Counted from the first letter of the stretch, positions 4,947-31,998 are shown. The stretch is 32,000 nucleotides of DNA from Candidatus Hermodarchaeota archaeon (GCA_048886185.1 JBHLKY010000015.1:70298-102297); one strand, 5' to 3'. Notes: generated by a model from the letters alone, not told the origin. A program made the numbers and translations.

Positions 4947-5194
4947 AGTTAAACTTAAAGATCATTCTACCAGGTTTTTTTTGGAATTTCTAATAATTCC
5001 TCATTATTTGTGTTAAAAATACACATAATTATTATATCTTATAATAAACAGTTATTTAAACCTTTTTTCTAATAATAACTGCAGTAATTTACAAAGATAA
5101 AGACTTATATTTAGTATTATACCTAACTCAAGTCAAATTGAATATCTTTATAAATTTCTTTTGTTTTTGCTTAATTTTTGCTCCTCTAGAGAAA

Positions 5195-5392
5195 ATGAGG
5201 AGTGAAATAATAAGAATATACTTTGAGAATGAAATCATAATGGAAAAAGAATGGAAATTAGATAAAATTATTAATTTAAACAGGCTAATTATACTGCATG
5301 AGAAGAAATACAAACATACTTGGAACTGTATGGATAATATTCGAAAATTCTCGGAGAAAAGACTAATAATTGTTACAGATGACTGTTACTGA
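5195..5392 (+). CDS. Possible small hypothetical protein (65 aa)
   Basis: ATG at 5195 is in frame with the track ORF 5138..5392 and preceded by GAGAAA. No recognisable motif; could be a chance ORF. Confidence 0.2.
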   Translation: MRSEIIRIYFENEIIMEKEWKLDKIINLNRLIILHEKKYKHTWNCMDNIRKFSEKRLIIVTDDCY

Positions 5393-9162: not shown

Positions 9163-9199
9163 TGAATTGATAATCGATTTCAATAAAGGGCAGGAAACC

Positions 9200-11079: not shown

Positions 11080-11155
11080 GATGATGAATTAATGTAGAAA
11101 ACGAAATAAAAGAATTCTCCCACCTAGATTGAAAAATAGATGCTGTGTAAATGAA

Positions 11156-11602
11156 ATGAGTGAACCAATAAAGTTAGGGTACCGTGCTTTAGGAGGCACC
11201 CTCCTAGTTATTCTGATAATTATTTGCGGAACAATAGCAATTGCTTTTCTAATAGCTGGAATTGCCCTTATGGCATATATTTCATGGTTGCCCTATATCG
11301 ATCCAAGCTTCTTACAGACTATTCGCATATCATTCTTAGGTGAACGGATATTAGATCCTTCCTATGCTTTCTTATTGTTCTTTATATCAGGATTGACCTT
11401 GGCAGCGGTCGGAATTATTATATTTGGGTTTTTATATTATGTTGCTAAAACTGCTGAATTAATTGACAAGGATTTATCAAATTCAGTGGAAAATACTTTG
11501 CCAAGTCTCAAAGTTCTTAAAAGCCGAAAAGGAAAAGCAGTCTTTATATTGGGAATAATGTTGTTTGGCACAGTCCTTACATTTCTCGCTTTAATTTTTT
11601 AA
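11156..11602 (+). CDS. Small integral membrane protein (148 aa), paralog B
   Basis: ATG 11156 aligns with the paralog A start (MSEPIK vs MNESIK). Additional C-terminal TM AVFILGIMLFGTVLTFLALIF. Confidence 0.85.
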   Translation: MSEPIKLGYRALGGTLLVILIIICGTIAIAFLIAGIALMAYISWLPYIDPSFLQTIRISFLGERILDPSYAFLLFFISGLTLAAVGIIIFGFLYYVAKTAELIDKDLSNSVENTLPSLKVLKSRKGKAVFILGIMLFGTVLTFLALIF

Positions 11603-14600: not shown

Positions 14601-17600
14601 TATATCGTAACAGATTTTCAGTGGAGTTAGAGAAATATATTCCTGCACCGATTCCGCCATTCCCTCCAGAGCCATAGGAGCTATCTGCAGTTCCCCCTAT
14701 TCCCCCTATAATATCATTAATCCAATTACTATAAAAACGATTCTTAGTTGAATTAGACAGATATATCCCTGTTCCGATGCCACCATTCCCTCCCGAGCTA
14801 TAGGAACCATTTGCGGCTCCCCCCATTCCACCAGTAATATCAGTAATCAAATTGAAAGAAAAGTAATTATCATGGGAGTTTGACAAAAATATTCCTGCAC
14901 CGATCCCATCATTCCCTCCCGAGCTATTAGTGTCGTTTGTTCCCTCTCCTATTCCCCCACTGATATCAGTGATTGAGTTGAAAGTGATATAATTATCGTC
15001 GGAATAATACAAGTATATTCCTGTTCCAATATTACCAAGTGAATAAGGGTTTTTTATTAAATCTCCCGAATGTTCAATATTGTTAATTTGATTTTCTTGG
15101 ATAACATTATTAGTAGAATGACTTAATGTAATCCCATTGAAACTGATGTTGATAAAAGTATTCGAATAGAGATTATTATTCGAGGAATTTCTTAAATAAA
15201 GCCCAAAATAATTATTTTTGAAAGTATTATCTTTAATAAGGCAATTACTGGCATGATCAAGTATCAGAGGATAGTAATTATTTATGAAATAAGAATTAGT
15301 GATCTGAACACCATCAGTATTGATCCATAAGCTTCCAAATTCACTAGAAGCATTTCCACAATAAGAAATAGAACTGCTGTTCATACGGAAAGAAGAACCA
15401 TTTTTTACTTTTATTTGGTAGGAGTTGGTTGAATCTATGGAAGTAATGGATGACCCAGTTTCAATAGTAAGACTACCACCTTTGAAAATCTCAATACGGG
15501 ATTGACTACTGGATATGTAAGTCATATAAACGGTAATGTTTCGAAGAGTTAGAGTTCCGTTTTTAAGGATAAGTAAATTCCCATTAAGGGTTAAAATATC
15601 ATTCTCAAGAATTATCGTGTGATTTTCGATAATCCAATCACCCATGGATGGTAAATTGAAGTGTTTTACAACAGAGAGCCATACTGTATCTTTTGCTTGG
15701 TTATTCTTTTGATCAAAAACTATCAATGTGTAGTTGTAATCGCCTATAGGAAGTTCAGTGATTTGAAGATCGATTGAAGATCCATTCCAAGGGCCTGAAA
15801 GAATAACAGTTCCATTTTGATAGATGACATAAGAAGAGGGATAAACATCATTAGGAAGCCAACTAAGCTCCGTGTCAGTTACACCTTCAGAAATAGTCAC
15901 ATCAAAAGGATGATTAATGTTGGGAACTGTCAAATCTTCCACATAGAATGATTTAAATCCTACATAGTGGCTAGTATCGTCACTATTACCCGCTGTATCA
16001 TTATACCAGAAATACCAGTTATAAATCTGACCATAGGTAAGCATCTCCTCAGTAAAGGTGTAAGTGCTGGTCTCCGTGACATCCACGATTATCCAAGACA
16101 TAAAGTTTATTCGATAATAGAGTAGGATAGTATCCACACCACTTGCGTCCTGCGGTTCAGTTATAGTTACTGATACGGTATTAGATTCATCATATTCTGG
16201 CTTGACACTAGTCTGTGTTAGATCAGAGAAACTTGGTACAGTGTTATCAATTACATTGAAAAACTGCTTTATGGACTGATCATTGTTACCTGCGGTGTCA
16301 TTAAACCAAAAGTACCACTCATAACTTTGATTATATGCAAGATCTGCAAAAGTGTAACTGCTAGTAGTACTGCAGTCTACCTCTTCCCAAGAATCATTGT
16401 TGATACGATAGTATAATAAAATCTTATCAACACCACTTGCGTCTGATTCTTCACTGACTACGATAGAAACAGTATTGATCTCATCATATTCAGGTGTATT
16501 TGCTACCTGATTTGGAGGTTCTATAATTTCAGGTACAAAATTATCAACTACTTCGAAAGAGAACTCATTACTGAAAGCTATATTACCAACAGTATCATTA
16601 TAACCAATCTTCCATTTGTAAACCTGACCATAGAATAACATTAGATCATTAAAGGTGAAAGATTGAGTAGTTGTAATTTCTACAATTGTAAATGTTTGCC
16701 AATTATTTATTGTATAATTGATCCATACTGTATCGACACCACTAGCATCAAAGGATTCAGTCACTAAAATGGAAACAGAAGTAGAACCATTAAACTCGGG
16801 AGTGGAATCAGTTTGAACTGGTTTAATCTCGACATCTGGGGCATATGAATCTATAACTACAAAAGAAAATTCAGAGCTAATTGCATAATTTCCTATGGAG
16901 TCGTTATATCCAATAATCCATTGAAAGGTTTGACCAAACACCAACAATGATTCATTAAAGGTGTAGTATTGCGTTTTACTAATATTAGCTACTGTGAATG
17001 ACTGCCAATTATTCGAAGTGTAATTAATCCATATAGTATCGATACCTGCGGCGTCAGAGGGTTCAGCCACAACAATAGAAGCAATTACAGTACCATTATA
17101 ATCAGGTGTGGAGGTAGTTTGGCTAGGTGTTATACTAACATCAGGTGAATAACTATCGATAACAGTAAAGGTGAATTCATTACTGGTAGCAAAATTGCCT
17201 GCAGTGTCGTTATAGGCTATTATCCATCTATATATCTGGCCATATTCAAGATTTGTATCTGTAAAGATGAAAGTTTGAGTCTCTGTTATGTTAATCACTA
17301 GAAAATTGTTCCAGTTGTCAATTGTATAATTAATCCAGACAGTATCCACGCCACTTGCATCTCCAGGTTCAGACACAGTGATGGAAGCAATAACGGTACC
17401 GTTATATTCAGGGGTAGTGGTGGTTTGAGCAGCTGGAGTGATTAAATCAGGAATATAAGAGTCGATGACTGAGAAGGAGTGTTCCTCACTCGAAGCGGTG
17501 TTTCCCACAGTGTCGTTATAAAGAATAACCCATTGATAGACTTGGTTATAGAATAATAATGAGTCTGTAAAGACAAATGTTTGTGTTTTTGTAATATTGA

Positions 17601-20600
17601 CCATTGTACTTGTGGCCCAATTGTCGGTCGAATACTTAATCCAGACAGTATCCACACCACTAGCATCTCCTGGTTCAGATACAGTGATAGAAGCAATAAC
17701 GGTACCGTTATATTCAGGGGAAGTGGTGGTTTGAGCAGCTGGAGTGATTAAATCAGGAATATAAGAGTCGATGACTGAGAAGGAGTGTTCCTCACTCGAA
17801 GCGGTGTTTCCTGCGGTGTCGTTGTAAAGAATAACCCATTGATAGACTTGGTTATAGAATAATAATGAGTCTGTAAAGACAAATGTTTGCGTTTCTGTAA
17901 TATTGACCGTTGTACTTGTGGCCCAATTGTCGGTCGAATAATTAATCCAGACAGTATCCACGCCACTTGCATCTCCAGGTTCAGACACAATGATGGATGC
18001 AATAACGGAGCCGTTATATTCAGGAGTAATGGTGGTTTGAGCAGCAGAAGTGATTAAATCTGGACTATAGGAGTCAATGACTGAGAAGGAGAATTCCTCA
18101 CTCGAATCGTTATTTCCTGCATTATCGATAAATACAATCTTCCATCGATACATTTCACCATATGATAAAATTTCATTTGAAAAAGTGTATGATTGAGTTG
18201 AGGTAATATTTTCAATCATAAAGGTTTCCCAGTTGTCTGTGGTATAGTTAATCCACACAGTATTCACACCACTTGCATCTAGTGGTTCTGTAACAAGGAT
18301 TGATGCAGTCACTGAACCATTAAATTCGGGAGTAGATGTTGTTTGACTAGCAGCATCTTCAACATTAGGTAGATAAGAATCAATAACAGTAAAGGATTCA
18401 ATCGTTGTTTGATCACTATTTCCAGCTGTATCATTAAATTTAAAGTACCACATATATTTTTGACCAAAAGTTAGCATATCTGGGGTGAAAGTAAAGTTAC
18501 TTGTACTAGTAACATCTATCTCTACCCAAGAACCAGTATTTACACGATAGCATAGCAAGATTGTGTCTACGCCACTGGCATTTCCAGGATCACTAACCAT
18601 AACGGAAACTGTGTTTGATCCGTTATATTCAGGAGTGGAACTAGTCTGAGTCAGATTAGTGTACTCCATGGAAGTATTATCAGTAACAGTGAACGTTAAG
18701 ATTTCTGTCTCATCATTATTTCCTTCTGTATCATTAAACCAGAAACGCCAATCATAAATATCGCCATAATTGAGTATGGCTTCCGTAAAAGTAAAATTAC
18801 TTGTCGATGTGACATCTATCTCGATCCACATACCACTATTAATCCGATATTTTAGTATAATTGTGTCCACTCCACTTGCATCTATTGGTTCAAATACATT
18901 CACAGATACAGTATTCGATCCATTATATTCGGGAGTTTCTGTAGTTTGTTCTAACATAGAATAAATAGGGGCAGTATAATCATCAACATAAAATGAATAA
19001 TTCGTTGTTTCGGCACTGTTTCCTTCTGTATCATTAAACCAGAATCGCCAATCATAAATATCGCCATAATTGAGCATTTCTTCAGTAAAAATGAAGTAGC
19101 TTGTTAAAGTGACATCAACTTCTGTCCATGACTCACTATTAAGACTATAAAATAATAAAACAGTATCCACTCCTGCAGCATCTGAAGGTTCATTCACAAC
19201 TATAGAAATAGTATTGGATCCATCATATTCAGGAGAAGCAGTCGTTTGTTGAGCAATTTCCTCGATATCAGGTGCATAGGAATCAATCACTGTGAATAAG
19301 AATGCTTCACTAAAGGCTTTATTACCTGCAGTATCATTGTAACCAATAATCCAGTTATATGTTTGGTCAAACTTTAACATCTCCGCAGTAAAAATGAAAG
19401 TTTGGGTTGAAGTTATATTTACAACTGTAAAAGTAACCCAATTATCAAGTGTATAGTTAATCCATATAGAATCTATCCCACTAGCATTCCCTGGTTCTAT
19501 AACAGTAATAGAAGTAGTTACTGTACTATTGAATTCAGGAGTAGCAGTAGATTGAATTGCTGAACTAATTACATCAGGGGCATAGGAATCGATTACTTCA
19601 AAAGATAATTCTTTACTAAAAGCAGTATTCCCTGCAGAGTCGTTATAACCTATTACCCATTGATATTTTTGACCATATACTAATATAGCTTCATTAAATA
19701 TGAAATCTTGAGTAAGAGATATATCAACTAACATGTAATTTAACCAATCATCTATTGTATAATTAATCCAGACAGTATCCACACCACTAGCGTCTCCAGG
19801 TTCAACTACTTGAATTGAGGCAATTACAGAGTTATTAAATTCAGGTCTTGAAGTATTTTGATTGGCTCTAATTAACACATCAGGAACATAAGTGTCTATC
19901 ACAACAAAAGTAAACTCACTACTTGAACCTGTATTGCCAATGGTATCATTGTAGCTTATTACCCAGGAATAAATTTGGGGGTATTCTAACATCTCTTCAG
20001 CAAATGTGAACCTTTGAGTTGAGGTAATATTCACAATCGTGAAATTAATCCAATTATTAATGGTATAATTAATCCAAATGGTGTTTATTCCACAGGCATC
20101 TTCAGGTTCAGTTACCTGAATAGAAGCTGTAACAGTATCATTAAATTCTGGTGTTGAAGTAGTTTGAGATGCCTCAACTATCACATCAGGCGCATAAGAG
20201 TCGATAACTATGAAAGAAAGTTCCTCGCTATAAGCTATATTTCCTGCAAAATCGGTATAACGCATTATCCACTGATATTTTTGATTAAAACGTAACATGT
20301 TTGAAGTAAAGATGAAAATCTGCAATGTAGTAATTTCAGCAACAGTGTAGCTAGACCAATTATCAGTAGTATAGTGGATCCAAAGCCTTTTAAAGCCACT
20401 CGCATCCACCGGTTCATTTACATTAATTGAGGCTATCACACTAGCATTATATTGAGGATTGAAAGTTGTTTGACTAGCGGGGATTATCACATCAGGTGCA
20501 AATGAATCAACCACTGTAAAAGAGAGTTCCTCACTATATCCGATATTGCCTAAACTATCGTTATATCCAATTATCCACCGATAAATCTGATTATATTCTA

Positions 20601-23600
20601 GCATTGCAGCTGTGAAAATGAATGATTGGGTCTGATTAATATTCACAACAACAAAATTATTCCAATCATCTATTGTATAATTTATCCAAACTGTATCCAT
20701 CCCACTAGCATCAGAAGGTTCAGTTACTTGAATAGTTGCCTCTACAGTCCCATTATACTCTGGAGTAGAATCAGTTTGTGATGCCTTCACTATTACATCA
20801 GGTGCATAGGTGTCAATAACTGTAAAGGAAAACTTATTAGAATACCCCATATTACCTACAGTATCGTTATAGCCAATATACCATCGATAGGTTTGATTAT
20901 ATTTAAGTATAGCTTCAGTAAATATGAAAGACTGGGTTGTGGTTATATCCACAATTATAAAGGTTAACCAGTCGTTTATGGTGTAATTTATCCATACGGT
21001 ATCTATACCACTAGCATTAATAGGCTCATAAACTTGAATAGATGCCTCTACAGTCCCATTATACTCTGGATTAGAATCAGTTTGTGATGCATCAATTATT
21101 ACATCAGGCGCATAAGTATCAATTACTGTAAAGGAAAGCTCATTAGAATACCCCGTATTACCTGCAGTATCGTTGTAGCCAATATACCATCTATAAATTT
21201 GACTGTATTTAAGCATTGTTTCAGTGAAAGTGAAAGATTGAGTAAGGGTAATATTCTTCACTATATATGATACCCAATTATCTAATGTATAATTAATCCA
21301 AATAAAATCTAAACCTGCTGCATCCCCTGGTTCTGTTACTGTAATGGAAGTGGTCACAGTTTCATTAAATTCAGGAATAAATGTGGATTGAGTGATAGGC
21401 ACTTCAACATCAGGAATAAAACTATCAATAACATAAAAGAGAAATTCATCACTGAAACCAGTATTACCTACTGTATCATTGTACCCTAATATCCATTGAT
21501 AGGTTTCTCCATATTCTATCATGTCTTCGGTAAATGTAAACATTTCTGTTAAGGTAATATCTATTATTATAAAGGAATCCCAAGAGTCTGTTGTGTAATT
21601 AATCCAAATAGTATCCACACCACTGGCATCAGAAGATTCACTTACATCTATTGATACAACAACACTGCTATTAAATTCAGGATAAGCTGTTGATTGAGAT
21701 GCCACAGAAATCACATCTGGAATGTAAGAGTCCTGAACTGTAAAGAAAAATTCATCACTGTACCCCATATTCCCCAATGAGTCATTATAACTGATTACCC
21801 AATAATAATTCTGATTATATTCGAGCATAGCGTCTGTAAATATGAATGCCTGTGTTTCTGTGATGTCAAAGACTGTGAAATCTTCCCAATTATTCAATGT
21901 ATAATTGATCCATACAGTATCTAATCCTGCAGCATCTGCAGGTTCAAACACGTTGATAGAGGCGATAACTGTGTCGTTATACTCAGGAGAAGAAGTTGAT
22001 TGAGATGCTTTCATTGTAACATCTGGTTCGTATGAATCTCCGACAATAAACAGGAATTCACTACTTGATTTCATATTATTCATTGTATCATTAAACCATA
22101 TTTGCCATAAGTAAGTCTGATCAAATTCCAACATAGATTCGGTGAAGATAAATGTTTGAGACAGTGATATATCTTCAATGGTAAAGGAGTTCCAAAAGTC
22201 CATCGTATATTTAATCCAAACGGAATCTAATCCTGCTGCATCATCTGGTTCGCTTATGGTTACTGATACATGTACAGTTCCATTATATTCTGGATTTGAA
22301 GTAGTTTGAGTTGGTGCGATTATTATATCAGGTGCATATGAGTCAATTACCGTAAAAGAAAATTGCTGACTGTAACCTGTATTTCCGATACTGTCATTAT
22401 AACCAATCATCCATAAATAGACTTGATTAAATTCTAACATTGTATCGTTAAAGGTAAAATCCTGTGTTGGAGTAATATTAACAACTGTATAAGACTGCCA
22501 GTTATTCTTTGTATAATTCATCCAAACTGTATCTAATCTTGCAGCATCATCTGGTTCACTTATGGTTACTGATACATGTACAGTTCCATTGTATTCAGGG
22601 TTTGTAGTACTTTGAGTTGGTCCAGTTATTATATCAGGAGCATAAGAATCAATAACTATGAAAGATAATTCTGAACTATCCTCTGTATTGCCTTCAAGAT
22701 CGCTATATCTAATAAACCATTGACAAAATTGATTATATTCTAGCATTCCTTCAGTAAAGGTGAAAGATTGTGTTGATGTAATATCAGCTACTGTATAAGA
22801 ATACCAATTTTGAAAAGTATAATAGATCCATATTCTGTCTAATCCACTTGCATCAGAAGGTTCTGATACTTGAATGGAGGCTATGACGGTACTATTATAT
22901 TCTGGTGTGTTCGTGGATTGAGTCGAGGCAGTAATAACATCAGGAGCATGAGAATCAATAACTATAAATGAGTACTCTAGGCTTTCTTCACTATTTCCTG
23001 CACTATCATTGTAACTTATTTTCCATCGATAGGTTTGTCCAAACTCTAGCATTAATTCAGTAAAAGTGAATGATTGTGTTTGGGTGATATTCAAAAATAT
23101 AAAATTAATCCAATCGTCTGTTGTATAGTTAATCCACACAGTATCCAATCCACTGGCATCAGAAGGTTCACTCACTTGAATAGAGGCCTCTACAGTCCCA
23201 TTATACTCAGGAGTGGAATCAGTTTGTGATGCTTCAGTTATTACATCAGGGACATAAGTATCAATAACTGTAAAGGAAAACTCATTAGAATACCCCGTAT
23301 TACCTGCAGTATCGTTAAAGCCGATCCTCCACTGATATATCTGGTTATATTTGAGCATACCTTCAGTGAAAGTAAAACTTTGCGTTCCACTTATATCAAC
23401 GACAGTAAAGCTATTCCAATTGGTTATCGTATAATTGATCCATACAAGATCCAAACCACTAGCATTAAAAGGCTCCTCTACAGAGATTAATGCACTTAAC
23501 GTATCGTTAAACTCAGGATATGATGTTGTTTGGAAAGCATCTTCAACAATATCAGGTTGATAAGAATCAATTACAGTAAAAGATTCAACTGTTGTTTGAT

Positions 23601-26600
23601 CTATATTTCCTGCTGTATCATTAAAGGTGAAATACCACTCATATACCTGATTGTAGCTAAGCATTCCAGGAGTGAAAGTGAAATTACTGGTAAGTGTGAC
23701 GTCCACCTCTATCCAGGGCCCATTATTAACATTATAATACAGCAAGATTGTGTCTACTTCACTAACATTATCAGGATCACTAATTACAACTGAAACAGTA
23801 TTTGAACCATTATATTCAGGAGTTGCACTTGTTTGAGATAAATCAGAGTATTCTAAAGCAGTTTTATCAACAACAGTGAAAGAAAGAATTGATGTTTCTG
23901 CACTATTTCCTGCAGTATCGTTGAAAACGAAGAACCAATCATATATCTGACCGTAGTTAAGCATATCTTCAGTGAAGGTGAAATTACTTGTAGTTGTAAC
24001 ATCTTCCTCTATCCAATTCCCACCATCAATTCGATATTTTAACAGTATAGTGTCTATACCACTCGCATCTGTAGGCTCACTCACTGTTATGGAAACAGTG
24101 TTATTTTCATCATATTCAGGAGTAGCTGTTGTTTGTTCGGCATCCTTTATAACATCAGGGGCAAAATTATCAATTACTATAAAAACAAACTCATCTGTAA
24201 ATGCTAAATTACCTGCAGTATCGTTATAGCTGATTCTCCATTTATATGTTTGATCATATTCTAACATGGCTTCAGTAAAGGTAAATCTTTGCGTTTCAGT
24301 AATGTTAACAACTGTATAAGACTGCCAATTATCCAAAGTGTAAATAATCCAGACTGTATCCATTCCACTGGCATTTATAGGTTCCGATACATGAATAGAC
24401 GCCTCCACAGTATCGTTGAACTGTGGATTAGAAGTAGTCTGACTAGCATGGGTAGTAACATCAGGTGCAAAGGTATCAATCACAGTAAAAGCGAATTCCT
24501 CACTAAAAGCAGTATTACCCACAGTATCGTTGTAACCAATCCTCCACTGATATATCTGGTCATATTTGAGCATCATTTCAGTAAAAGTAAAGCTTTGCGT
24601 TTGGCTGATATTAACTACTGTATAGGACTGCCAATTGTTTAAGGTGTAATTAATCCAGATTACATCCACTCCGCTAGCATCTGTAGGCTCATTAACTTGT
24701 ATTGAGACCTCAACAGTATCATTGTACTGTGGAGTGGAAGTAGTTTGACTAGCATGGATAGTAACATCAGGTGCAAAGGTATCAATCACAGTAAAAGCGA
24801 ACTCCTTACTAAAAGCAGTATTACCCACAGTATCGTTGTAACCGATCCTCCACTGATATATCTGGTCAAATTCCAACATGATTTCTGTAAAGGTAAAGCT
24901 TTGTGTTTCAGTAATGTTAATCACTGTGTAAGATAACCAATTATCTAAAGTGTAGTTCATCCAGATAGTATCTACCCCACTGGCATCAGAAGCCTCTGCT
25001 ACTTGAATTGACGCTGTTGTTGTCCCATTAAATTCAGGTGTGGAAGTGGTTTGACTTGCTTCAACGATGACATCAGGGGCAAATTCATCTATAACAGTAA
25101 AGAAAAACTCGCTACTATAAGCCGTGTTACTTTGAGAATCATTATAACCTATTATCCAGCGACAAATTTGGTTGTACTTTAGAAATTCTTCGGTAAAGAA
25201 AAATACTTGTGTTGTTGTAATGTTTACAACCATAAAAGTTTGCCAGTTGTCTAATGTATGATTTATCCAGACCGTATCTATCCCACTGGCATCAATGGGT
25301 TCATCTACCTGAATGGACACCGCAACAGTATCATTGAAATTAGGTGTTGAAGTGGTTTGGGATGCTGTACTTATCACATCAGGTGAATAACTATCAATAA
25401 CTGTGAAAGAGAGCTCTTGACTATCTTTTGTATTCCCTTCAAAGTCTCTAAATCTAATAAACCATTGATACAATTCTCCAAACTTTAAGATTTCCCCAGT
25501 AAAGGTAAAGGTCTGTGTTGGAGTAATATCAGTTACAATATACGTGTCCCAATTATTAATAGTATAATAAATCCACACCTTATATAATCCACTAGCGTCA
25601 TTTGGCTCAAATACTTGGATAGATACTCCTACTGTTCCATTATATTCAGGAGTTGAAGTAGTTTGAGCGGGAGTAGTAATCACATCAGGCGCATAAGAGT
25701 CAATTACTGTAAAAGAAAATTCATTTGTATATCCTGAATTCCCAATACTATCATTAAATCCTATTTTCCAATAATAGATCTGACCAAACACTAACATTTC
25801 AGGAGTAAAAATGAAGGTTTGTGTTATAGTAATATTCTCCTCTATAGTGGTTACCCAATTATCATTTGTATAACTAATCCACACGGTATCCACACCACTG
25901 GCGTCTATGGGTTCACTCACAAGGATAGATGCAACAACAGTGCCATTATATTCAGGTGTGGATGTGGATTGGTTTGCTTTAACAGTAATATCAGGTGCAA
26001 ACGAATCAACGACTGTAAAAGTGAATTTATTACTTGAAGCAGTATTTCCCTCTGTATCATTAAAATTAATTATCCATTCATAGGTTTGGGGATATTCTAG
26101 CATTTCTGGAGTAAAAGTGAATCTTTGCAATGAAGTTATATCCACTACAGTAGAGCTAAACCAATTATTTGTAGTATAATTGATGTATATTATATCCAAT
26201 CCACTGGCATCAGTGGGTTCATCCACTTGAATAGACACTTCTACTGTTCCATTATATTCAGGAGTTGAAGTAGTTTGAGCGGGAGCAGTAATCACATCAG
26301 GCGCATAAGAGTCAATTACTATAAAAGAAAATTCATTTGTATATCCTGAATTCCCAATACTATCATTAAATCCTATTTTCCAATAATAGATCTGACCAAA
26401 CACTAACATTTCAGGAGTAAAAATGAAGGTTTGTGTTATAGTAATATTCTCCTCTATAGTGGTTACCCAATTATCATTTGTATAACTAATCCACACGGTA
26501 TCCACGCCACTGGCGTCTATAGGTTCACTCACAAGGATAGAGGTAACAACAGTACTATTATATTCAGGGGTGGATGTAGTTTGACTAGCGGTGACTTCAA

Positions 26601-29600
26601 TATCAGGAGCAAAACTATCAATAACAATGAATGACAATTCCTTACTAAAAGCGATATTCCCTTCAGTATCATTGAATCCAATCTTCCAAAGATAAACCTG
26701 GCCATATTGAAGCATCTCTGGAGGAAATGTGAAAGACTGGGTTGAGCTTATATCCTCTGTGGTGAATGAAAGCCAATCGTTTGTTGAATAGTTAATCCAA
26801 ACTTTATCCATCCCACTAGCATCAATTGGCTCTATTACATTTATTGAAGCTACAGTACTTCCATTAAATTCAGGTGTTGAAGAAGTTTGACTTTCTCCAA
26901 TTTCAACATCAGGAGCATAAGAATCAATCACTATAAAGGATAGTTCTGAACTATATTTAGTATTTCCTTCATTATCACGATATCCTATCACCCATTCATA
27001 AGTTTGTCCAAAGTTTAACATGGACGAGGTGAATGTGAAACTCTGGGTCTGTGTTATGTTTACTACAATAGTGCTATCCCAATTGTCTGTTGTGTATTCT
27101 ATCCAAACTTTATCCAAACCACTAGCATCTTCTGGTTCTTCTACTTGAATAAACACATAAACTGTATCATTATATTCAGGAGTAGAGGAATTCTGAGATG
27201 CATAAGTTAGAACATCTGGAGCATAAGAGTCCACAACTGTAAAAGTAAATTCCATACTATAAGCTATATTTCCAATGGTATCATTATAGCCTATTTTCCA
27301 CTGGTAAGTCTGGTCATATTCCAATAATCCTTCTGTAAATATATAGGATTGTGTTTCTGTTATATTTTTCACTATATAGGTAACCCAGTTATCCGTAGTA
27401 TAATTTATCCAGACTGTGTCTAGTCCCGCAGCATCAGAAGGTTCGCTTACTTGAATCGAGGTCGTTACTGTGCCATTATATTCAGGATTTGATGTGTTTT
27501 GACTTGCTGTTATTTCAACTTCTGGTGCATAAGGATCCACTACTGTAAAAACAAATTCTTCACTTAGCGCGGTGTTACCTAATGTATCATTATAACCAAT
27601 TAGCCAATTGTATGTCTGACCATATTCTAACATTCCCCCAATAAAAGTGAATGATTGTGTTGAGGTGATACTCACTACTGAAAAAGTCGTCCAATTGTCA
27701 GTGGTGTAATTAATCCACACGGTGGCTAATCCAGCAGCATCCAAAGGTTCACTAACACCAATAGAAGCAATCACTGTATCATTGTATGAGGGAAAATTAT
27801 TTGTTTGAGCTGCTGGTTCATCTACATCCGGTACATATGAGTCAATAACTGTGAAAGCATGTTCCTCGCAGTACTTAATATTCCCTTCAAGATCACTAAA
27901 ACCAATTTTCCATTGATATATGTCAGGATATTTCAATATCTCCTCTGTAAATGTGAATGATTGCGTTGGAGTAATATCAACTACAGTATAGCTAGCCCAA
28001 TTATTGGTAGTGTAATGGATCCAGACACTACTTAATCCGCTGGCATTTGCAGGTTCAGCTACTTGAATTGAAACTACTACTGTTCCATTATATTCTGGCG
28101 TTGCTGTTGTTTGACTAGCAGGGATAATCACATCGGGACTATATGAATCTAATACTTGGAATGAGAATTCATTACTGTATCCTGTATTCCCTGCAGTATC
28201 ATTATAACCAATTATCCAATGATATATCTGGTCATATTTTAGCATTGCAGAGACAAAAGTATATTCTTGTGTACTAGTTATATTCACAATGGTGAAAGAA
28301 TTCCAGTCATTGATTGTATAATTCAACCAAACAGTGTCTATTCCAGCAGCATTAGTGGGTTCACTTATTGTGATAGAAACTCGAACAGTTTCATTATATT
28401 CAGGAGTGGAATCTGTTTGAGTTGCAGCTTCATTAACATCAGGGGCATATGAATCAATTATTATGAATGATAGCTCCTCACTAAAATCAGTATTCCCTGC
28501 TGTATCATTATAACCAACTATCCATTGATAGATCTGGCCAAAACTTATGATTGAAGGAGTAAATGTAAATGATTGCGTTTCGGTAATATCTACCACTTTA
28601 TAGGTATCCCAATTATTTATTGTGTAATTAATCCATACAGTATCTAAACCACTCGCATCATCTGGTTCAGTTACATTAATAGAAGTCACCACAGTCTCGT
28701 TATATTCTAAGATAGACGTATTTTGGCTAGCAGCTTCTTCAACTTCAGGAACATAAGAATCAGTTACAGTAAATGATTCAAAAGTTGTCTGGTCGTTATT
28801 TCCCGCTGTATCATTAAACCAGAAGTACCATGTATACACCTGTCCATAGAAAAGAATACTTGGAGTGAAAGTGTAGTTACTCGTTTCTGTAACGTTTACT
28901 GTTATCCAGTATCCACTATTAATACGATAATACAATAGGATTGTGTCCACTCCACTAGCACCACCTGGATCAATAACGACCACTGAAACAGTATTTGAGC
29001 TATTATACTCTGGAGTTGCACTCGTCTGAGTCAAATTGGAGTATTCTAAAGCAGTTTCATCAACTACAGTGAATGAAAAAGTTGAGGTCTGTTCGTTATT
29101 TCCTGCTGTATCATTGAATAGGAAAAACCAATCATATACTTGACCATATTCAAGCATATCTTCAGTAAAAGTGAAATTACTTGTAGTTGTAACATCTACT
29201 TCTATCCAAGATCCGCTATTAATCCGATAATTTAGTAAAATCGTGTCTATACCACTCGCATCTGATGGTTCATGAATTGTTATTGTTACAGTATTATTTT
29301 CGTCGTATTCAGGGGTAGATGTTGTTTGATTAGCAGCTTTTATAATATCAGGGGCATAAGAATCTATTACATCAAAAATGAATTCTTTGCTAGAGGCACT
29401 GTTACCTAGAGTGTCATTATAACTAATTATCCAATGATAAATCTGGCCATATTCAAGTATTAGATTGGTAAAAATATAACTTTGCGTTAAATTGATATTG
29501 ACCACTGAACTAGTTACCCAATTATCTAGCGTATAATTAATCCAAACTGTATCAATCCCACTAGCATCTGGAGGTTCAGTTATTTGAATCGATGCGATTA

Positions 29601-31998
29601 CTGACCCATTGTATTCTGGAGTAGTAGTGGTTTGGTTGGCCTCTGTTATGACATCAGGAGCATATGAATCTATAACTGTGAACGATAATTCCTGGCTATA
29701 AGCAGTATTTCCTACAGAATCGTTATACCCGATTATCCACCTATAGACCTGATTGTAAATCAGCATTGAGTCTATAAAAGTGTAGGATTGTGTTTCAGTG
29801 ATGTTCACGACACTAAAAGTTACCCAATTATCTAGTGTATAATTAATCCAAACTGTATCAATCCCACTAGCATCTGGAGGTTCAGTTATTTGAATCGATG
29901 CGATTACTGATCCATTATATTCTGGAGTAGTAGTGGTTTGGTTGGCCTCTGTTATGACATCAGGAGCATATGAATCTATAACTGTGAACGATAACTCCTG
30001 ACTAAATGCGGTATTCCCTGCAGAATCATTGTACCCGATTATCCATCGGAAAATTTCACTATAATTTAACATTTCGGCCATAAACGTAAATGATTGTGTA
30101 TCTGTAATATTCACAACTGTATAGCTGACCCAGTTATCCCATGTGTAATTTATCCAAACTGTGTTGATTCCACTAGCATCTGAAGGTTCGTTCACACTAA
30201 TTGAGGTTTCAACTGTACCATTGAATTCTGGTGCATTAGTAGTTTGATATGGTGCTGTTGTTACATCAGGAGCATAAGAATCAATCACTATGAAGGAAAA
30301 TATCTGACTGAAACCTGTATTACTGATTGTATCATTAAATCCTATTAACCAATTGTATGTCTGATTATACTTTAACACCCCCTCTGTAAATGTGAATGTT
30401 TGAGAAGTGGTTATATTCTCAATTATGAAGCTCACCCAGTCATCTGTAGTATAATTGATCCAGACAGTATTCAAACCAGCAGCATCTGCTGGTTCACTAA
30501 TTCCAATTGTTATATTCACTGTATCATTGAAATCAGGAGTATTTGTAGTTTGTGTTGGTGCAATTGTGATGTCAGGTGCATAAGTATCAACGACAGAGAA
30601 ATTAAACTCCTTACTATCTTGAGTATTGCCTTCAAAGTCAGTATATCTGATAAACCATTGATAAAATTGATTATACTCTAGCATTCCTTTGGGAAACATA
30701 AAAGATTGAGTAAGTGTAATATCAGTGACCGTATAAGAAAACCAATTATTAGAAGTATAGTGGATCCACACCTTATTTAACCCACTAGCATCTAAAGGTT
30801 CCTCCACTAGAATAGAAGCTGTCACCGTACCATTAAATTCAGGTGTAGAAGTTGTTTGGTTTGCAGCAACAATAACAGTAGGAACATAACTATCTATTAC
30901 AATGAATGAAAGCTCTTCGCTAAATGCAGTATTACCTGCAGTATCATTATACCCGATTATCCATTGATATATCTGATTATATTCTAGTATCCCAGCTGAA
31001 AAAATGAATGCTTGTGTCAAGGTTATATTAACTAAAGTTGAATCAATCCAATTATTTGATGTGTAATTTATCCATACAGTATCGATTCTTGCAGCATCGG
31101 GTGGTTCGTACACCTGAATGGATGCAAGGACACTTTGGTTGTATTCAGGCATTGTAGTGTTCTGATTGGCTGCCACCGTAACAGTAGGAACAAAGGAATC
31201 CACAACAGTAAATGAAAGTTCGTTGCTATATCCTGTATTACCATAAGAGTCATTATAGCCAATTACCCATTGATATGTTAAATTATAATCCAACATTGAG
31301 TCTGTAAAGGTGAAAAATTGCGTCTCGGTGATATTCACGATAGTAAAGGTTACCCAATCATTTAAGGTGTAATTAATCCAAACTGTATCTATTCCCGCGG
31401 CATCTGGTGGCTCACTTACCTGAATAGTTGTCAACACGCTTTGGTTGTATTCAGGAGTAGTATTATTCTGATTGGCTGCAAACTCGACTGTGGGGGCGAA
31501 AGAATCAACCACTGTAAACCAAAATTCCTCACTGAAGCCAGTATTCCCTATGGTATCATTATAACCTATTTTCCACTGATATGTTAAGCTATAATTCAGC
31601 ATTGAGGCTACAAAGGTGAAGGATTGCGTGGTGGTGATATTTACAACAAAAAAGGTTACCCAATCATTGAAGGTATAGTTAATCCAGACAGTGTTTAGTC
31701 CCGCGGCATCTGATGGCTCACTTACCTGAATAGCTGTCAGCACGCTTTGGTTGTATTCAGGAGTCGTGGTGTTCTGATTGGCTGCCACCGTAACAGTAGG
31801 AACAAATGAATCCACAACAGTAAATGAAAGTTCGTTGCTATATCCTGTATTACCATAAGAGTCATTATAGCCAATTACCCATTGATATGTCAAATTATAA
31901 TCCAACATTGAGTCTGTAAAGGTGAAAGATTGCGTCTCGGTGATATTCATGACACTAAAGGTTACCCAGTTATTTGTAGTATAGTTGATCCAGACAGT
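11644..31998 (-). CDS. Giant repeat-rich surface glycoprotein/adhesin-like protein (>6780 aa), 5'-partial
   Basis: Uninterrupted frame that stays open to the window edge (TVWINYTTNNWVTFSV precedes the track 'start'). 53 tandem Ig-like repeats, one 90-aa IYxNGT Ig module (15667-15936), a parallel beta-helix region (~13870-15660), 7 more repeats, a TM PILLLGAFSVVVIVSFTASTLLL (11665-11733) and the tail KRKKNT. Confidence 0.95.
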   Translation of the reverse strand, partial: TVWINYTTNNWVTFSVMNITETQSFTFTDSMLDYNLTYQWVIGYNDSYGNTGYSNELSFTVVDSFVPTVTVAANQNTTTPEYNQSVLTAIQVSEPSDAAGLNTVWINYTFNDWVTFFVVNITTTQSFTFVASMLNYSLTYQWKIGYNDTIGNTGFSEEFWFTVVDSFAPTVEFAANQNNTTPEYNQSVLTTIQVSEPPDAAGIDTVWINYTLNDWVTFTIVNITETQFFTFTDSMLDYNLTYQWVIGYNDSYGNTGYSNELSFTVVDSFVPTVTVAANQNTTMPEYNQSVLASIQVYEPPDAARIDTVWINYTSNNWIDSTLVNITLTQAFIFSAGILEYNQIYQWIIGYNDTAGNTAFSEELSFIVIDSYVPTVIVAANQTTSTPEFNGTVTASILVEEPLDASGLNKVWIHYTSNNWFSYTVTDITLTQSFMFPKGMLEYNQFYQWFIRYTDFEGNTQDSKEFNFSVVDTYAPDITIAPTQTTNTPDFNDTVNITIGISEPADAAGLNTVWINYTTDDWVSFIIENITTSQTFTFTEGVLKYNQTYNWLIGFNDTISNTGFSQIFSFIVIDSYAPDVTTAPYQTTNAPEFNGTVETSISVNEPSDASGINTVWINYTWDNWVSYTVVNITDTQSFTFMAEMLNYSEIFRWIIGYNDSAGNTAFSQELSFTVIDSYAPDVITEANQTTTTPEYNGSVIASIQITEPPDASGIDTVWINYTLDNWVTFSVVNITETQSYTFIDSMLIYNQVYRWIIGYNDSVGNTAYSQELSFTVIDSYAPDVITEANQTTTTPEYNGSVIASIQITEPPDASGIDTVWINYTLDNWVTSSVVNINLTQSYIFTNLILEYGQIYHWIISYNDTLGNSASSKEFIFDVIDSYAPDIIKAANQTTSTPEYDENNTVTITIHEPSDASGIDTILLNYRINSGSWIEVDVTTTSNFTFTEDMLEYGQVYDWFFLFNDTAGNNEQTSTFSFTVVDETALEYSNLTQTSATPEYNSSNTVSVVVIDPGGASGVDTILLYYRINSGYWITVNVTETSNYTFTPSILFYGQVYTWYFWFNDTAGNNDQTTFESFTVTDSYVPEVEEAASQNTSILEYNETVVTSINVTEPDDASGLDTVWINYTINNWDTYKVVDITETQSFTFTPSIISFGQIYQWIVGYNDTAGNTDFSEELSFIIIDSYAPDVNEAATQTDSTPEYNETVRVSITISEPTNAAGIDTVWLNYTINDWNSFTIVNITSTQEYTFVSAMLKYDQIYHWIIGYNDTAGNTGYSNEFSFQVLDSYSPDVIIPASQTTATPEYNGTVVVSIQVAEPANASGLSSVWIHYTTNNWASYTVVDITPTQSFTFTEEILKYPDIYQWKIGFSDLEGNIKYCEEHAFTVIDSYVPDVDEPAAQTNNFPSYNDTVIASIGVSEPLDAAGLATVWINYTTDNWTTFSVVSITSTQSFTFIGGMLEYGQTYNWLIGYNDTLGNTALSEEFVFTVVDPYAPEVEITASQNTSNPEYNGTVTTSIQVSEPSDAAGLDTVWINYTTDNWVTYIVKNITETQSYIFTEGLLEYDQTYQWKIGYNDTIGNIAYSMEFTFTVVDSYAPDVLTYASQNSSTPEYNDTVYVFIQVEEPEDASGLDKVWIEYTTDNWDSTIVVNITQTQSFTFTSSMLNFGQTYEWVIGYRDNEGNTKYSSELSFIVIDSYAPDVEIGESQTSSTPEFNGSTVASINVIEPIDASGMDKVWINYSTNDWLSFTTEDISSTQSFTFPPEMLQYGQVYLWKIGFNDTEGNIAFSKELSFIVIDSFAPDIEVTASQTTSTPEYNSTVVTSILVSEPIDASGVDTVWISYTNDNWVTTIEENITITQTFIFTPEMLVFGQIYYWKIGFNDSIGNSGYTNEFSFIVIDSYAPDVITAPAQTTSTPEYNGTVEVSIQVDEPTDASGLDIIYINYTTNNWFSSTVVDITSLQRFTFTPEMLEYPQTYEWIINFNDTEGNTASSNKFTFTVVDSFAPDITVKANQSTSTPEYNGTVVASILVSEPIDASGVDTVWISYTNDNWVTTIEENITITQTFIFTPEMLVFGQIYYWKIGFNDSIGNSGYTNEFSFTVIDSYAPDVITTPAQTTSTPEYNGTVGVSIQVFEPNDASGLYKVWIYYTINNWDTYIVTDITPTQTFTFTGEILKFGELYQWFIRFRDFEGNTKDSQELSFTVIDSYSPDVISTASQTTSTPNFNDTVAVSIQVDEPIDASGIDTVWINHTLDNWQTFMVVNITTTQVFFFTEEFLKYNQICRWIIGYNDSQSNTAYSSEFFFTVIDEFAPDVIVEASQTTSTPEFNGTTTASIQVAEASDASGVDTIWMNYTLDNWLSYTVINITETQSFTFTEIMLEFDQIYQWRIGYNDTVGNTAFSKEFAFTVIDTFAPDVTIHASQTTSTPQYNDTVEVSIQVNEPTDASGVDVIWINYTLNNWQSYTVVNISQTQSFTFTEMMLKYDQIYQWRIGYNDTVGNTAFSEEFAFTVIDTFAPDVTTHASQTTSNPQFNDTVEASIHVSEPINASGMDTVWIIYTLDNWQSYTVVNITETQRFTFTEAMLEYDQTYKWRISYNDTAGNLAFTDEFVFIVIDNFAPDVIKDAEQTTATPEYDENNTVSITVSEPTDASGIDTILLKYRIDGGNWIEEDVTTTSNFTFTEDMLNYGQIYDWFFVFNDTAGNSAETSILSFTVVDKTALEYSDLSQTSATPEYNGSNTVSVVISDPDNVSEVDTILLYYNVNNGPWIEVDVTLTSNFTFTPGMLSYNQVYEWYFTFNDTAGNIDQTTVESFTVIDSYQPDIVEDAFQTTSYPEFNDTLSALISVEEPFNASGLDLVWINYTITNWNSFTVVDISGTQSFTFTEGMLKYNQIYQWRIGFNDTAGNTGYSNEFSFTVIDTYVPDVITEASQTDSTPEYNGTVEASIQVSEPSDASGLDTVWINYTTDDWINFIFLNITQTQSFTFTELMLEFGQTYRWKISYNDSAGNSEESLEYSFIVIDSHAPDVITASTQSTNTPEYNSTVIASIQVSEPSDASGLDRIWIYYTFQNWYSYTVADITSTQSFTFTEGMLEYNQFCQWFIRYSDLEGNTEDSSELSFIVIDSYAPDIITGPTQSTTNPEYNGTVHVSVTISEPDDAARLDTVWMNYTKNNWQSYTVVNITPTQDFTFNDTMLEFNQVYLWMIGYNDSIGNTGYSQQFSFTVIDSYAPDIIIAPTQTTSNPEYNGTVHVSVTISEPDDAAGLDSVWIKYTMDFWNSFTIEDISLSQTFIFTESMLEFDQTYLWQIWFNDTMNNMKSSSEFLFIVGDSYEPDVTMKASQSTSSPEYNDTVIASINVFEPADAAGLDTVWINYTLNNWEDFTVFDITETQAFIFTDAMLEYNQNYYWVISYNDSLGNMGYSDEFFFTVQDSYIPDVISVASQSTAYPEFNSSVVVSIDVSESSDASGVDTIWINYTTDSWDSFIIIDITLTEMFTFTEDMIEYGETYQWILGYNDTVGNTGFSDEFLFYVIDSFIPDVEVPITQSTFIPEFNETVTTSITVTEPGDAAGLDFIWINYTLDNWVSYIVKNITLTQSFTFTETMLKYSQIYRWYIGYNDTAGNTGYSNELSFTVIDTYAPDVIIDASQTDSNPEYNGTVEASIQVYEPINASGIDTVWINYTINDWLTFIIVDITTTQSFIFTEAILKYNQTYRWYIGYNDTVGNMGYSNKFSFTVIDTYAPDVIVKASQTDSTPEYNGTVEATIQVTEPSDASGMDTVWINYTIDDWNNFVVVNINQTQSFIFTAAMLEYNQIYRWIIGYNDSLGNIGYSEELSFTVVDSFAPDVIIPASQTTFNPQYNASVIASINVNEPVDASGFKRLWIHYTTDNWSSYTVAEITTLQIFIFTSNMLRFNQKYQWIMRYTDFAGNIAYSEELSFIVIDSYAPDVIVEASQTTSTPEFNDTVTASIQVTEPEDACGINTIWINYTINNWINFTIVNITSTQRFTFAEEMLEYPQIYSWVISYNDTIGNTGSSSEFTFVVIDTYVPDVLIRANQNTSRPEFNNSVIASIQVVEPGDASGVDTVWINYTIDDWLNYMLVDISLTQDFIFNEAILVYGQKYQWVIGYNDSAGNTAFSKELSFEVIDSYAPDVISSAIQSTATPEFNSTVTTSITVIEPGNASGIDSIWINYTLDNWVTFTVVNITSTQTFIFTAEMLKFDQTYNWIIGYNDTAGNKAFSEAFLFTVIDSYAPDIEEIAQQTTASPEYDGSNTISIVVNEPSDAAGVDTVLLFYSLNSESWTEVDVTLTSYFIFTEEMLNYGDIYDWRFWFNDTEGNSAETTNYSFYVDDYTAPIYSMLEQTTETPEYNGSNTVSVNVFEPIDASGVDTIILKYRINSGMWIEIDVTSTSNFTFTEAILNYGDIYDWRFWFNDTEGNNDETEILTFTVTDNTSMEYTNLTQTSSTPEYNGSNTVSVMVSDPGNASGVDTILLCYRVNTGSWVEIDVTSTSNFTFTPDMLTFGQKYMWYFKFNDTAGNSDQTTIESFTVIDSYLPNVEDAASQTTSTPEFNGSVTASILVTEPLDASGVNTVWINYTTDNWETFMIENITSTQSYTFSNEILSYGEMYRWKIVFIDNAGNNDSSEEFSFSVIDSYSPDLITSAAQTTITPEYNGSVIASIIVSEPGDASGVDTVWINYSTDNWATSTTVNITETQTFVFTDSLLFYNQVYQWVILYNDTAGNTASSEEHSFSVIDSYIPDLITPAAQTTTSPEYNGTVIASITVSEPGDASGVDTVWIKYSTDNWATSTMVNITKTQTFVFTDSLLFYNQVYQWVILYNDTVGNTASSEEHSFSVIDSYIPDLITPAAQTTTTPEYNGTVIASITVSEPGDASGVDTVWINYTIDNWNNFLVINITETQTFIFTDTNLEYGQIYRWIIAYNDTAGNFATSNEFTFTVIDSYSPDVSITPSQTTSTPDYNGTVIASIVVAEPSDAAGIDTIWINYTSNNWQSFTVANISKTQYYTFNESLLVFGQTFQWIIGYNDSIGNYAISSEFSFVVIDSYAPDVEIKPVQTDSTPEFNGSTSVSILVTESFDASGVDTVWINYTINNWQTFTIVEITTTQSFTFNDLMLFYGQVYKWKIGYNDTVGNIAFSNEFSFEVVDNFVPEIIEPPNQVANTPEYDEINTVSIVVSEESDASGVDKILLYYRINNDSWEEVDCSTTSSYTFADLAYNQSYEWYFWFNDTAGNNDQSIKQFFNVIDNTVPSFSDLTQTSVKPEYDESNTVSVTITEPQDASGVDTILLYYRINFMSWIIVDVTETSTYTFTEEMLTYGQIYNWYFWYNDTAGNSDDTSHYVGFKSFYVEDLTVPNINHPFDVTISEGVTDTELSWLPNDVYPSSYVIYQNGTVILSGPWNGSSIDLQITELPIGDYNYTLIVFDQKNNQAKDTVWLSVVKHFNLPSMGDWIIENHTIILENDILTLNGNLLILKNGTLTLRNITVYMTYISSSQSRIEIFKGGSLTIETGSSITSIDSTNSYQIKVKNGSSFRMNSSSISYCGNASSEFGSLWINTDGVQITNSYFINNYYPLILDHASNCLIKDNTFKNNYFGLYLRNSSNNNLYSNTFINISFNGITLSHSTNNVIQENQINNIEHSGDLIKNPYSLGNIGTGIYLYYSDDNYITFNSITDISGGIGEGTNDTNSSGGNDGIGAGIFLSNSHDNYFSFNLITDITGGMGGAANGSYSSGGNGGIGTGIYLSNSTKNRFYSNWINDIIGGIGGTADSSYGSGGNGGIGAGIYFSNSTENLLRYNNINNIMEAIGGRGNVNGTKGSAFGIFLENNSFNNLLQTNRLDYNLIIYLFGQADTVIEGYTLTAQSNPTNLGKIVLINCHNITVMNNIISNYQGAAGATGASTIPGYLGESGVAIFLLNSENIIIKNNTIKNIKGGIGGTGGYQASGGSGGVGIGIYLLNSTYNIIQNNIVSDIIGGIGGEGGYASSNGPGGNSTSIYLVNSSYNSISSVIFNIKPGLGNPDGNHEYLQFNYYSENNIWIYQETAEVNYDLDHIVFFGVENISNIDTCLLYYRVDDETWTSINISTSHNFMFYSDLLFYGQIWECYYWINETSGFSHQTPILFFIITDIGPRLYSEVNQTNSLPEYTEFNTVFIIPDEPEGSSGIDTILLFYQVDNGAWLMVDVTTMKNYTFTSDMFIYGQFYKWYFLINDLAGNSNTTAIYSFSVVDKTSPTYTNPTQTNTHIEYDETNIVEVNVIESDQASGVETILLYYQVNNNGSWIFVDVSDTSSYIFTADMLSYNQNYDWYFWFNDTAGNSNLTATQSFIIIDTTAPTFSDLFQQNTTIPQGSEDPFQEDTVIQYCESNTVSVDISEPEDASGVDTVLLYYRVNNEAWKHIDVSYIQNYTFKASMLTFSQVYDWFFWFNDTAGNYGSTDILSFTVIDTIAPVAGHLTEGHPEYDADFTVSVNLIEPEDASGVDTILLYYRHNNHDNNLWLDPIDVSNTANYTFDNKALIYPDFYDWYFWFNDTAGNSNQTIIYTFTVTDNTPPSFLSMQQDISPLEYDKSATISIVIAEPTDASGVDEIYFYYKDNSTSSKWLNALVTENQSFRIDSSLLVYGHVWVWYFWYNDTAGNNDTTKTMSSTVRDFNPPSYSKINQTEEVLTAGMNNTISIVVWEPKDASGIEKVLLWYRHEDQGEASWSSLDITKSRSHTFNHDELEDGTYYWYLEIKDRAGNVVETAKESFQVIVEEVIFDPILLLGAFSVVVIVSFTASTLLLKRKKNT
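11750..13860 (-). repeat. Membrane-proximal array of 7 more divergent Ig-like repeats
   Basis: Same family, 'TILLYY...WYFWFNDTAGN' subtype, with length variation and insertions. The first copy is degenerate. Confidence 0.9.
15937..31998 (-). repeat. Tandem array of 53 Ig-like coding repeats, mostly 306 bp (102 aa), some 297-312 bp
   Basis: Consensus D-S-Y-A-P-D-V...Q-T-T-S-T-P-E-Y-N-G-T-V...E-P-x-D-A-S-G-x-D-T-V-W-I-N-Y-T...W...N-I-T-x-T-Q-S-F-T-F...Y-x-W-x-I-G-Y-N-D-T-x-G-N...F-T-V-I. Boundaries were checked against DNA at 31812, 30894, 29364, 25701, 24171, 20508, 19284 and 16545. Confidence 0.95.

Follow-up and report, generated by a model that had tools for sequence, protein, structure and literature searches.

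The window analysed here, a stretch of 32,000 nucleotides (G000:C15:70298-102297, G000 being the genome of this archaeon), carries on its minus strand the part of one giant gene that encodes the C-terminal half of its protein. The host lineage is Hodarchaeales (Heimdallarchaeia/Heimdallarchaeota, Asgard), as judged from the database names of the protein's relatives. On the plus strand, positions 3-4625 encode a large subtilase (Peptidase_S8, E 4e-63), secreted and also equipped with CARDB and PKD-like domains. The gene is cut off by the window start and includes a 276-bp tandem repeat at 3291-4339 (3.8 copies, 88% matches). Two further plus-strand genes, at 9167-10654 and 11129-11602, converge on the 3' end of the giant gene and gave no significant Pfam match. 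Both are syntenic in G003 (66% and 77% amino acid identity) and in G016 (36% and 45%), and this synteny makes a functional link with the giant protein possible.

The minus-strand ORF was segmented with an HMM made from its own repeat units, which fall into three main subtypes, A, B, and C. The ORF and its 3'-terminal modules are as follows.

11644-31998, minus strand: window part of the giant ORF, 6,784 aa, 5' end open, frame uninterrupted over 6,784 codons
13801-15885, minus strand: module after the last BB pair, in which a right-handed beta helix (Pfam Beta_helix, NosD; HMM segmentation and Pfam) comes after an unnamed stretch
11647-13800, minus strand: seven B-like domains, then the C-terminal transmembrane helix and the basic tail KRKKNT (HMM segmentation)

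The gene is interrupted by a 100-N scaffold gap at C15:102298-102397, starting one base beyond the window end. The 77 bp flanking this gap on each side are identical, as in a k-mer overlap of two contigs, and the number of A units at the joint (D48/D49 in whole-gene numbering) is therefore uncertain. After both sides of the gap were joined, the whole ORF amounted to ∼12,568 codons in one frame, in which the unit HMM gave 108 matches, two of them weak or partial, for a protein of ∼107 Ig/Fn3-like domains. From the N to the C terminus, the protein consists of a hydrophobic helix following MKQFNR, a beta-helix head, the domain array, a second beta helix, the seven B-like domains, and a hydrophobic helix preceding the tail KRKKNT, both hydrophobic helices having been called by eye. 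Within the second beta helix, a 126-bp tandem repeat (window 14613-14927, 2.5 copies) encodes glycine-rich rungs of the form GGxGGxG...GIYLxNS. The array itself holds ∼100 tandem Fn3/Ig-like domains of ∼102 aa each in the order BBB-a18-A9-BB-A18-[C A4 BB A2 C A7]x2-C A3 BBB-A6-BB. Its upstream half, at G000:C15:102398-119824, was observed to comprise long arrays of "a" units of 100 to 101 aa and of A units of 102 aa. The array is rich in N-x-S/T sequons, of which the giant protein has 571, or 4.5 per 100 aa.

Pfam assigned Big_13 with scores of 39.0 and 33.2 bits against a gathering cut-off of 27; the match of the unit was weak, and CBM53 was also weakly matched. An AlphaFold2 model of one domain in its true phase (the C-type domain D70), built from an alignment of 124 paralogs and orthologs, gave an eight-strand beta sandwich of Fn3/Ig-like fold with a pLDDT of 91. 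The best Foldseek matches of the modelled domain were Fn3 domains at TM 0.55 to 0.67, including titin Fn3-85 and A3 (TM ∼0.6). With a putative N-terminal signal or anchor, a long array of extracellular type, and a C-terminal membrane anchor, the predicted protein has the build of a giant cell-surface fibre or adhesin, and a giant glycosylated surface fibre is the reading that best fits its sequence.

The segment C-A4-BB-A2-C-A7 was found twice on the minus strand, at an offset of exactly 5193 bp (1731 aa). The type string in the window reads AAAA-[C A4 BB A2 C A7]x2-C A3 BBB A6 BB, the HMM segmentation placing C-type heads at window aa 409, 1324, 2140, 3055, and 3871 and B heads at window aa 919/1019, 2650/2750, and 4279/4379/4479. 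The corresponding features, together with two pairs of closely similar A domains discussed below, are these.

25702-30894, minus strand: copy 1 of the 17-domain unit C-A4-BB-A2-C-A7, D53 to D69, in true-domain phase (HMM segmentation)
20509-25701, minus strand: copy 2 of the 17-domain unit, D70 to D86, exactly 5193 bp from copy 1
18382-20508, minus strand: partial third copy, C-A3-BBB, D87 to D93, in which 7/17 positions correspond, followed by A6-BB and not by A2-C-A7
30589-30894, minus strand: C domain at position 1 of copy 1 (D53), without the A-type NYT, NIT, and NDT sequons
27844-28149, minus strand: C domain at position 10 of copy 1 (D62)
25396-25701, minus strand: C domain at position 1 of copy 2 (D70), modelled with AlphaFold2
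22651-22956, minus strand: C domain at position 10 of copy 2 (D79), whose closest paralog is D53 at lag 26
20203-20508, minus strand: C domain heading the partial third copy (D87)
28762-29364, minus strand: BB block of copy 1, the main stretch of clear DNA similarity at lag 5193
23569-24171, minus strand: BB block of copy 2
18382-19284, minus strand: BBB block in the partial third copy, with its final two domains matching the BB blocks at lags 17 and 34
25582-26499, minus strand: D67 (26194-26499) and D69 (25582-25887), 94% identical in G000, their L013 orthologs 71%
17344-17955, minus strand: D95/D96, a recent tandem duplicate of 95% DNA identity and the sole whole-domain difference from L013 in the fixed part of the array

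A previous sequence-only reading of the window had described this order of three subtypes at the exact 5193-bp offset. The HMM segmentation bore it out, the coordinates given there denoting the same units shifted 40 aa earlier to the true domain boundary. The extent of the super-repeat proposed there held for two complete copies, with the third contributing 7/17 positions for a total of ∼2.4, and the gene continues past the window; upstream of the first C domain, the array's 50 domains (BBB a18 A9 BB A18) show neither a C domain nor a 17-domain period. By hand count, the chance of the same placement of two B and two C domains in 17 slots is 1/14,280, or 1/1,680 with the B domains adjacent, and an identical subtype order at a constant offset is the hallmark of block duplication. 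Copies 1 and 2 are 66.5% identical in DNA. In an ungapped scan, lag 5193 ranked third, with an identity of 0.555, behind lags 306 and 612, but that peak partly reflects a reading register restored by the shorter B units, and the scan was therefore replaced by a domain-wise comparison.

For this comparison, all domains were aligned and examined at three levels (protein, codon-aligned DNA, and third codon positions) with Mann-Whitney tests. The earlier reading had anticipated similarity at lag 17 beyond the B and C positions and off-diagonals at lags 8 and 9; among A domains, none of this was found, and the absence of a lag-17 signal outside the B and C positions is what that reading had itself named as refuting it. 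In G000, A-A pairs at lag 17 were no more alike than any A pair in amino acids (0.583 versus 0.580), in nucleotides (0.642 versus 0.638), or at third codon positions (0.468 versus 0.466), with p 0.2 to 0.4 across tests, and leaving out the flanks of the B block did not alter the result. The signal was equally absent from L013 and from the four-way G000/L013 average. At lags 8 and 9, searched for half-unit homology behind the proposed 9+8 split, A-A pairs showed no signal either, and only C62/C70 paired weakly. In the A-A lag profile, only lags 1 and 2 were raised, because of local duplicates.

Position did leave a trace in the B block. Between copies 1 and 2, where the background DNA identity was 0.631 ± 0.049, the B domains (positions 6 and 7) reached 0.80 and 0.77 and the C domains 0.69 and 0.68; the thirteen A domains ranged from 0.595 to 0.68 with a mean of 0.645, not significantly above that background. 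Windows exceeding the 99th percentile at lag 5193 were 28712-29392 (the B block), 30559-30677, and 26207-26352; clear sequence similarity at lag 17 thus takes in the B block, over ∼0.7 kb, and two short windows elsewhere. In trees, B domains clustered by their place within the block, and C domains grouped across positions (D53 with D79 at lag 26 and D62 with D70 at lag 8) rather than at lag 17. Synonymous divergence was near saturation both for A pairs at lag 17 (pS 0.71) and for random A pairs (0.74), but B pairs had a dS of ∼0.96; hence, either the B blocks were homogenised later or the A domains were overwritten. The A domains supply no independent proof of having been co-duplicated.

Gene conversion among A domains is directly visible from the comparison of G000 with L013. 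D67 and D69 underwent lineage-specific conversion with the domain count unchanged, and D77, D84, D85, and D73 are 0.73 to 0.75 alike in G000 versus 0.59 to 0.62 in L013, with D84 having the lowest ortholog identity to L013 (0.64). Since conversion alters sequence and not domain number, A domains can lose the history of the block while the count stays exact. One of the position-specific signatures proposed earlier, QTDSTPEY, is not position-specific and is part of this converted set: QTDS was present in five G000 domains (D60, D77, D84, D85, and D98) and in none of L013, G016, or L014. Another, ALEYS in the second B domain, fared better, as [LM]EY[ST] was seen between the last two B domains in all four lineages.

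Relatives carrying this array numbered three in the collections searched, L013, G016, and L014, all of them fragmentary metagenome assemblies. Searches among 5.8 billion proteins found only P0001/P0007, P0002, and P0003. Among the 22 genomes of the genus, A/C-type units occurred in G016 alone, G001 and G033 having B-type N-terminal fragments and G003 and G006 short fragments. A scan of metagenome contigs gave no further relative, and a scan of genome contigs gave two weak, irrelevant bacterial matches. Breaks in the frame were observed in L013 (one, at 9487-9709) and in L014 (∼260, 5160-5206, and 16663), which are either sequencing or assembly errors in repeats or real.

L013, a sister species represented by a metagenome contig, has the order A18-[C A4 BB A2 C A7]x2-C A3 BBB-A5-BB-helix-B7. 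For nearly every domain from D51 to D95, the best match between G000 and L013 was the positional ortholog (64 to 89% amino acid identity), and one-to-one positional orthology extends from D51 to the C terminus. Orthologs had a dS of 0.61 and a dN/dS of 0.20, a sign of purifying selection on the individual domains. The A18 arrays upstream are not one-to-one between the two species, and upstream A arrays within G000 are 75 to 91% identical in DNA, which indicates that these arrays are still evolving in concert, unlike the fixed C-terminal array.

G016:C70 is a distant syntenic ortholog, its downstream neighbours being 45% and 36% identical to those in the window. The contig, which starts within the gene, runs A-C-A7-C-A3-BBB-A6-BB-helix-B7, matching the order of G000 D78 to D101, with the best register against G000 at offset 76. 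Its A domains were 0.54 identical to their positional orthologs, barely above other A domains (mean z 0.53, p 0.03 to 0.06). This positional signal is so marginal that the A domains of G016 cannot date the duplication, and a duplication this old or older would no longer show among A domains. In L014, a 17-kb contig with several frame breaks, the order is ...B6-A13-BB-A6-C-A7-C-A7-BBB-A..., with two C domains among ∼60; its spacing BB-A6-C-A7-C-A7-BBB compares with BB-A2-C-A7-C-A3-BBB in G000. The expectation that orthologs would keep the pattern thus held for the whole order in L013 and for the covered part of G016, but not for the spacers of L014.

These comparisons bear on whether the order or copy number could have come from misassembly of a repetitive metagenomic gene. 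The assembly is in 75 contigs, the 100-N gap with its identical 77-bp overlap lies directly past the window end, and near-identical units do occur (D95/D96 and D67/D69). However, the two 5193-bp copies differ enough at 66.5% identity to be distinguishable by short reads, the frame is open throughout its 6,784 codons, and L013, assembled independently from another sample, shows the same order with orthologs of 70 to 89% amino acid identity. An artefact is extremely improbable; the block duplication is inherited by relatives and so is not an assembly error.

The duplication certainly predates the split of G000 and L013. Its age relative to the split from G016 and L014 was sought in C- and B-domain trees, which gave no order for the two events. 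A recent duplication specific to G000 and L013, after their separation from G016 and L014, with the missing A signal due wholly to gene conversion, is possible but somewhat doubtful. It would account for the B tree, in which the last B domains of copy 1, copy 2, and the third copy in G000/L013 form a clade excluding the G016 positional ortholog and L014 (95/90), for B paralogs inside G000 (0.64 to 0.77) being closer than G016 orthologs (0.51 to 0.65), and for the single BB...C...C...BBB series in L014. Concerted evolution of B blocks would yield the same tree pattern, however, and the two B blocks of L014 are likewise nearest each other (0.88 and 0.73), so that the clade fits either history. 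The dS of 0.96 between B pairs also exceeds that of 0.61 between G000 and L013 orthologs, and the G016 contig stops short of the informative region.

The sequence-only reading had gone further, taking the block for an ancient duplication retained under selection as a ruler with a period of ∼17 domains. An old duplication and purifying selection on the domains were upheld; the ruler was not. In the A band of titin, super-repeats are built from Ig/Fn3 patterns of 7 domains occurring six times and of 11 domains occurring eleven times, and a domain resembles its counterparts in the other super-repeats more than it resembles its neighbours. The archaeal protein resembles titin in its tandem beta-sandwich domains of ∼100 aa, in a subtype order repeated as a block, and in the conservation of orthologous positions between species. 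It differs in having 2.4 copies where titin has 6 and 11 pattern repeats, in the 13/17 positions that lack positional similarity, and in being an extracellular, putatively glycosylated archaeal protein whose homology to titin is limited to the common fold. A period selected to match a periodic partner or a set length, with position-specific domain identities, would by analogy be compatible with the order kept in L013 and in the available part of the distant G016, with C domains of sequon-free character at fixed positions in all four lineages, and with the [LM]EY[ST] linker signature conserved in B blocks. Against such a ruler stand the small number of copies (two in full and 7/17 positions of a third, rather than the same block many times in tandem along the molecule), its absence from the 50 upstream domains, and the spacers of A6 and A7 in L014 in place of A2 and A3. 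Equivalent positions are more alike in the B block alone: A domains lack lag-17 similarity in G000, in L013, and in their average, C domains pair at lag 26 or 8, and the QTDSTPEY signature is missing from the sister species. Conserved order also needs no selection on a period, since neighbouring repeats are ∼64% identical in DNA and unequal crossing-over between them should therefore be rare. A titin-like ruler is thus unlikely.

With a probability of roughly 80%, the pattern is best explained as an old segmental duplication, its order now fixed, within a giant surface protein, giving a local higher-order repeat of ∼2.4 copies and not a gene-wide period. The 17-domain segment C-A4-BB-A2-C-A7 would have been duplicated in tandem, with an older or partial third copy, C-A3-BBB, following it, probably by unequal recombination between A-type units. 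The copies would since have diverged to a DNA identity of ∼64%, at which unequal crossing-over can no longer be frequent. Domain number and order would then have become fixed, each domain being passed on one-to-one while ordinary purifying selection acted on it. Conversion of short tracts continues among the numerous A domains, scrambling their history without altering the count, so that only the rare B and C types would still mark the duplication. Segmental duplication within tandem arrays is a general source of higher-order repeats, the super-repeats of nebulin being one example. As in repeats of the nebulin type, a multi-unit block was apparently copied by unequal exchange, and its period is visible only through variant units. 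Unlike in those repeats, one or two events seem to have sufficed, the copies have diverged near saturation, and conversion among the common unit would have erased the block signal.

Giant Ig-like adhesins offer a second comparison. Bap of Acinetobacter is a giant bacterial adhesin of 8,621 aa with repeat types A to G in arrays (PMC4647330), and like it the present protein is a single multi-thousand-residue surface protein with several subtypes of Ig-like modules of 70 to 110 aa. Arrays of this class differ from strain to strain, and in assemblies frameshifts often break them up, as is seen in L013 and L014. Unlike Bap, the present protein comes from an archaeon, ends in a C-terminal transmembrane anchor, has a beta-helix module on either side of its array, and is dense in N-x-S/T sequons; its Pfam matches are Big_13 and CBM53-like and do not include the Big_3_4 of Bap; and a portion of its array stays constant between species, its domains being one-to-one orthologs. 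Giant genes have been reported from Asgard archaea before (Wu et al. 2022, PMC8813620, Extended Data Fig. 7); in the parts of that source bearing on such genes, the focus is on the aloposon twin genes, with no account found of this family, its subtypes, or its block duplication. A wider search of the literature found no description of this protein family.

The C domains are set apart from the A domains by their sequons. In all four lineages, A domains carry sequons at alignment columns 5 (NYT), 45 (NDT/S), and 88 in 88 to 100% of cases, and a further sequon at column 18 (NIT) is kept by A domains in G000 and L013. In all C domains of the four lineages (14/14), the column 5 and 45 sequons are absent and that at column 88 is kept, an absence that is partly definitional, although neither the missing column 18 sequon nor the conservation at orthologous positions is. 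Most C copies also have a C-specific motif resembling R[YF]xDxxGN. C identity has stayed at set positions in four lineages even though conversion is active among A domains. This is the strongest hint that the placement of C domains matters and that some selection acts beyond a purely neutral account. One domain was observed to be half-way C-like: D65 (window 26926-27231; head at ORF aa 1630), with KVWIEYT...GYRDNEGN, has lost NYT and NDT and kept NIT. This state is common to its L013 ortholog H31, and its lag-17 partner D82 is an ordinary A domain.

It can be speculated that the C domains are conserved glycan-free docking sites at set positions in a heavily N-glycosylated fibre, and that the 17-domain duplication was retained as it multiplied them at 8- and 9-domain spacing, scaffolding a partner or lateral self-association. 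This proposal is rather unlikely, but if true, it would mean that a close archaeal relative of eukaryotes bears a periodic scaffold on its surface. The conserved sequon-free C domains are concrete targets for glycoproteomics and imaging.

For the evolution of tandem arrays, the repeated order of rare subtypes proves block duplication and not a functional period, and where conversion acts among common units, an absent lag signal is uninformative on age. Two evolutionary regimes coexist in this one giant repeat gene: the N-terminal arrays are homogenised within each species, and the C-terminal array retains the same domain number and order in different species even though its variable residues have almost wholly turned over. 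For Asgard biology, one of the largest archaeal surface proteins is now documented, whose ∼107 domains, if extended at ∼4 nm each as a rule of thumb, would reach ∼400 nm.
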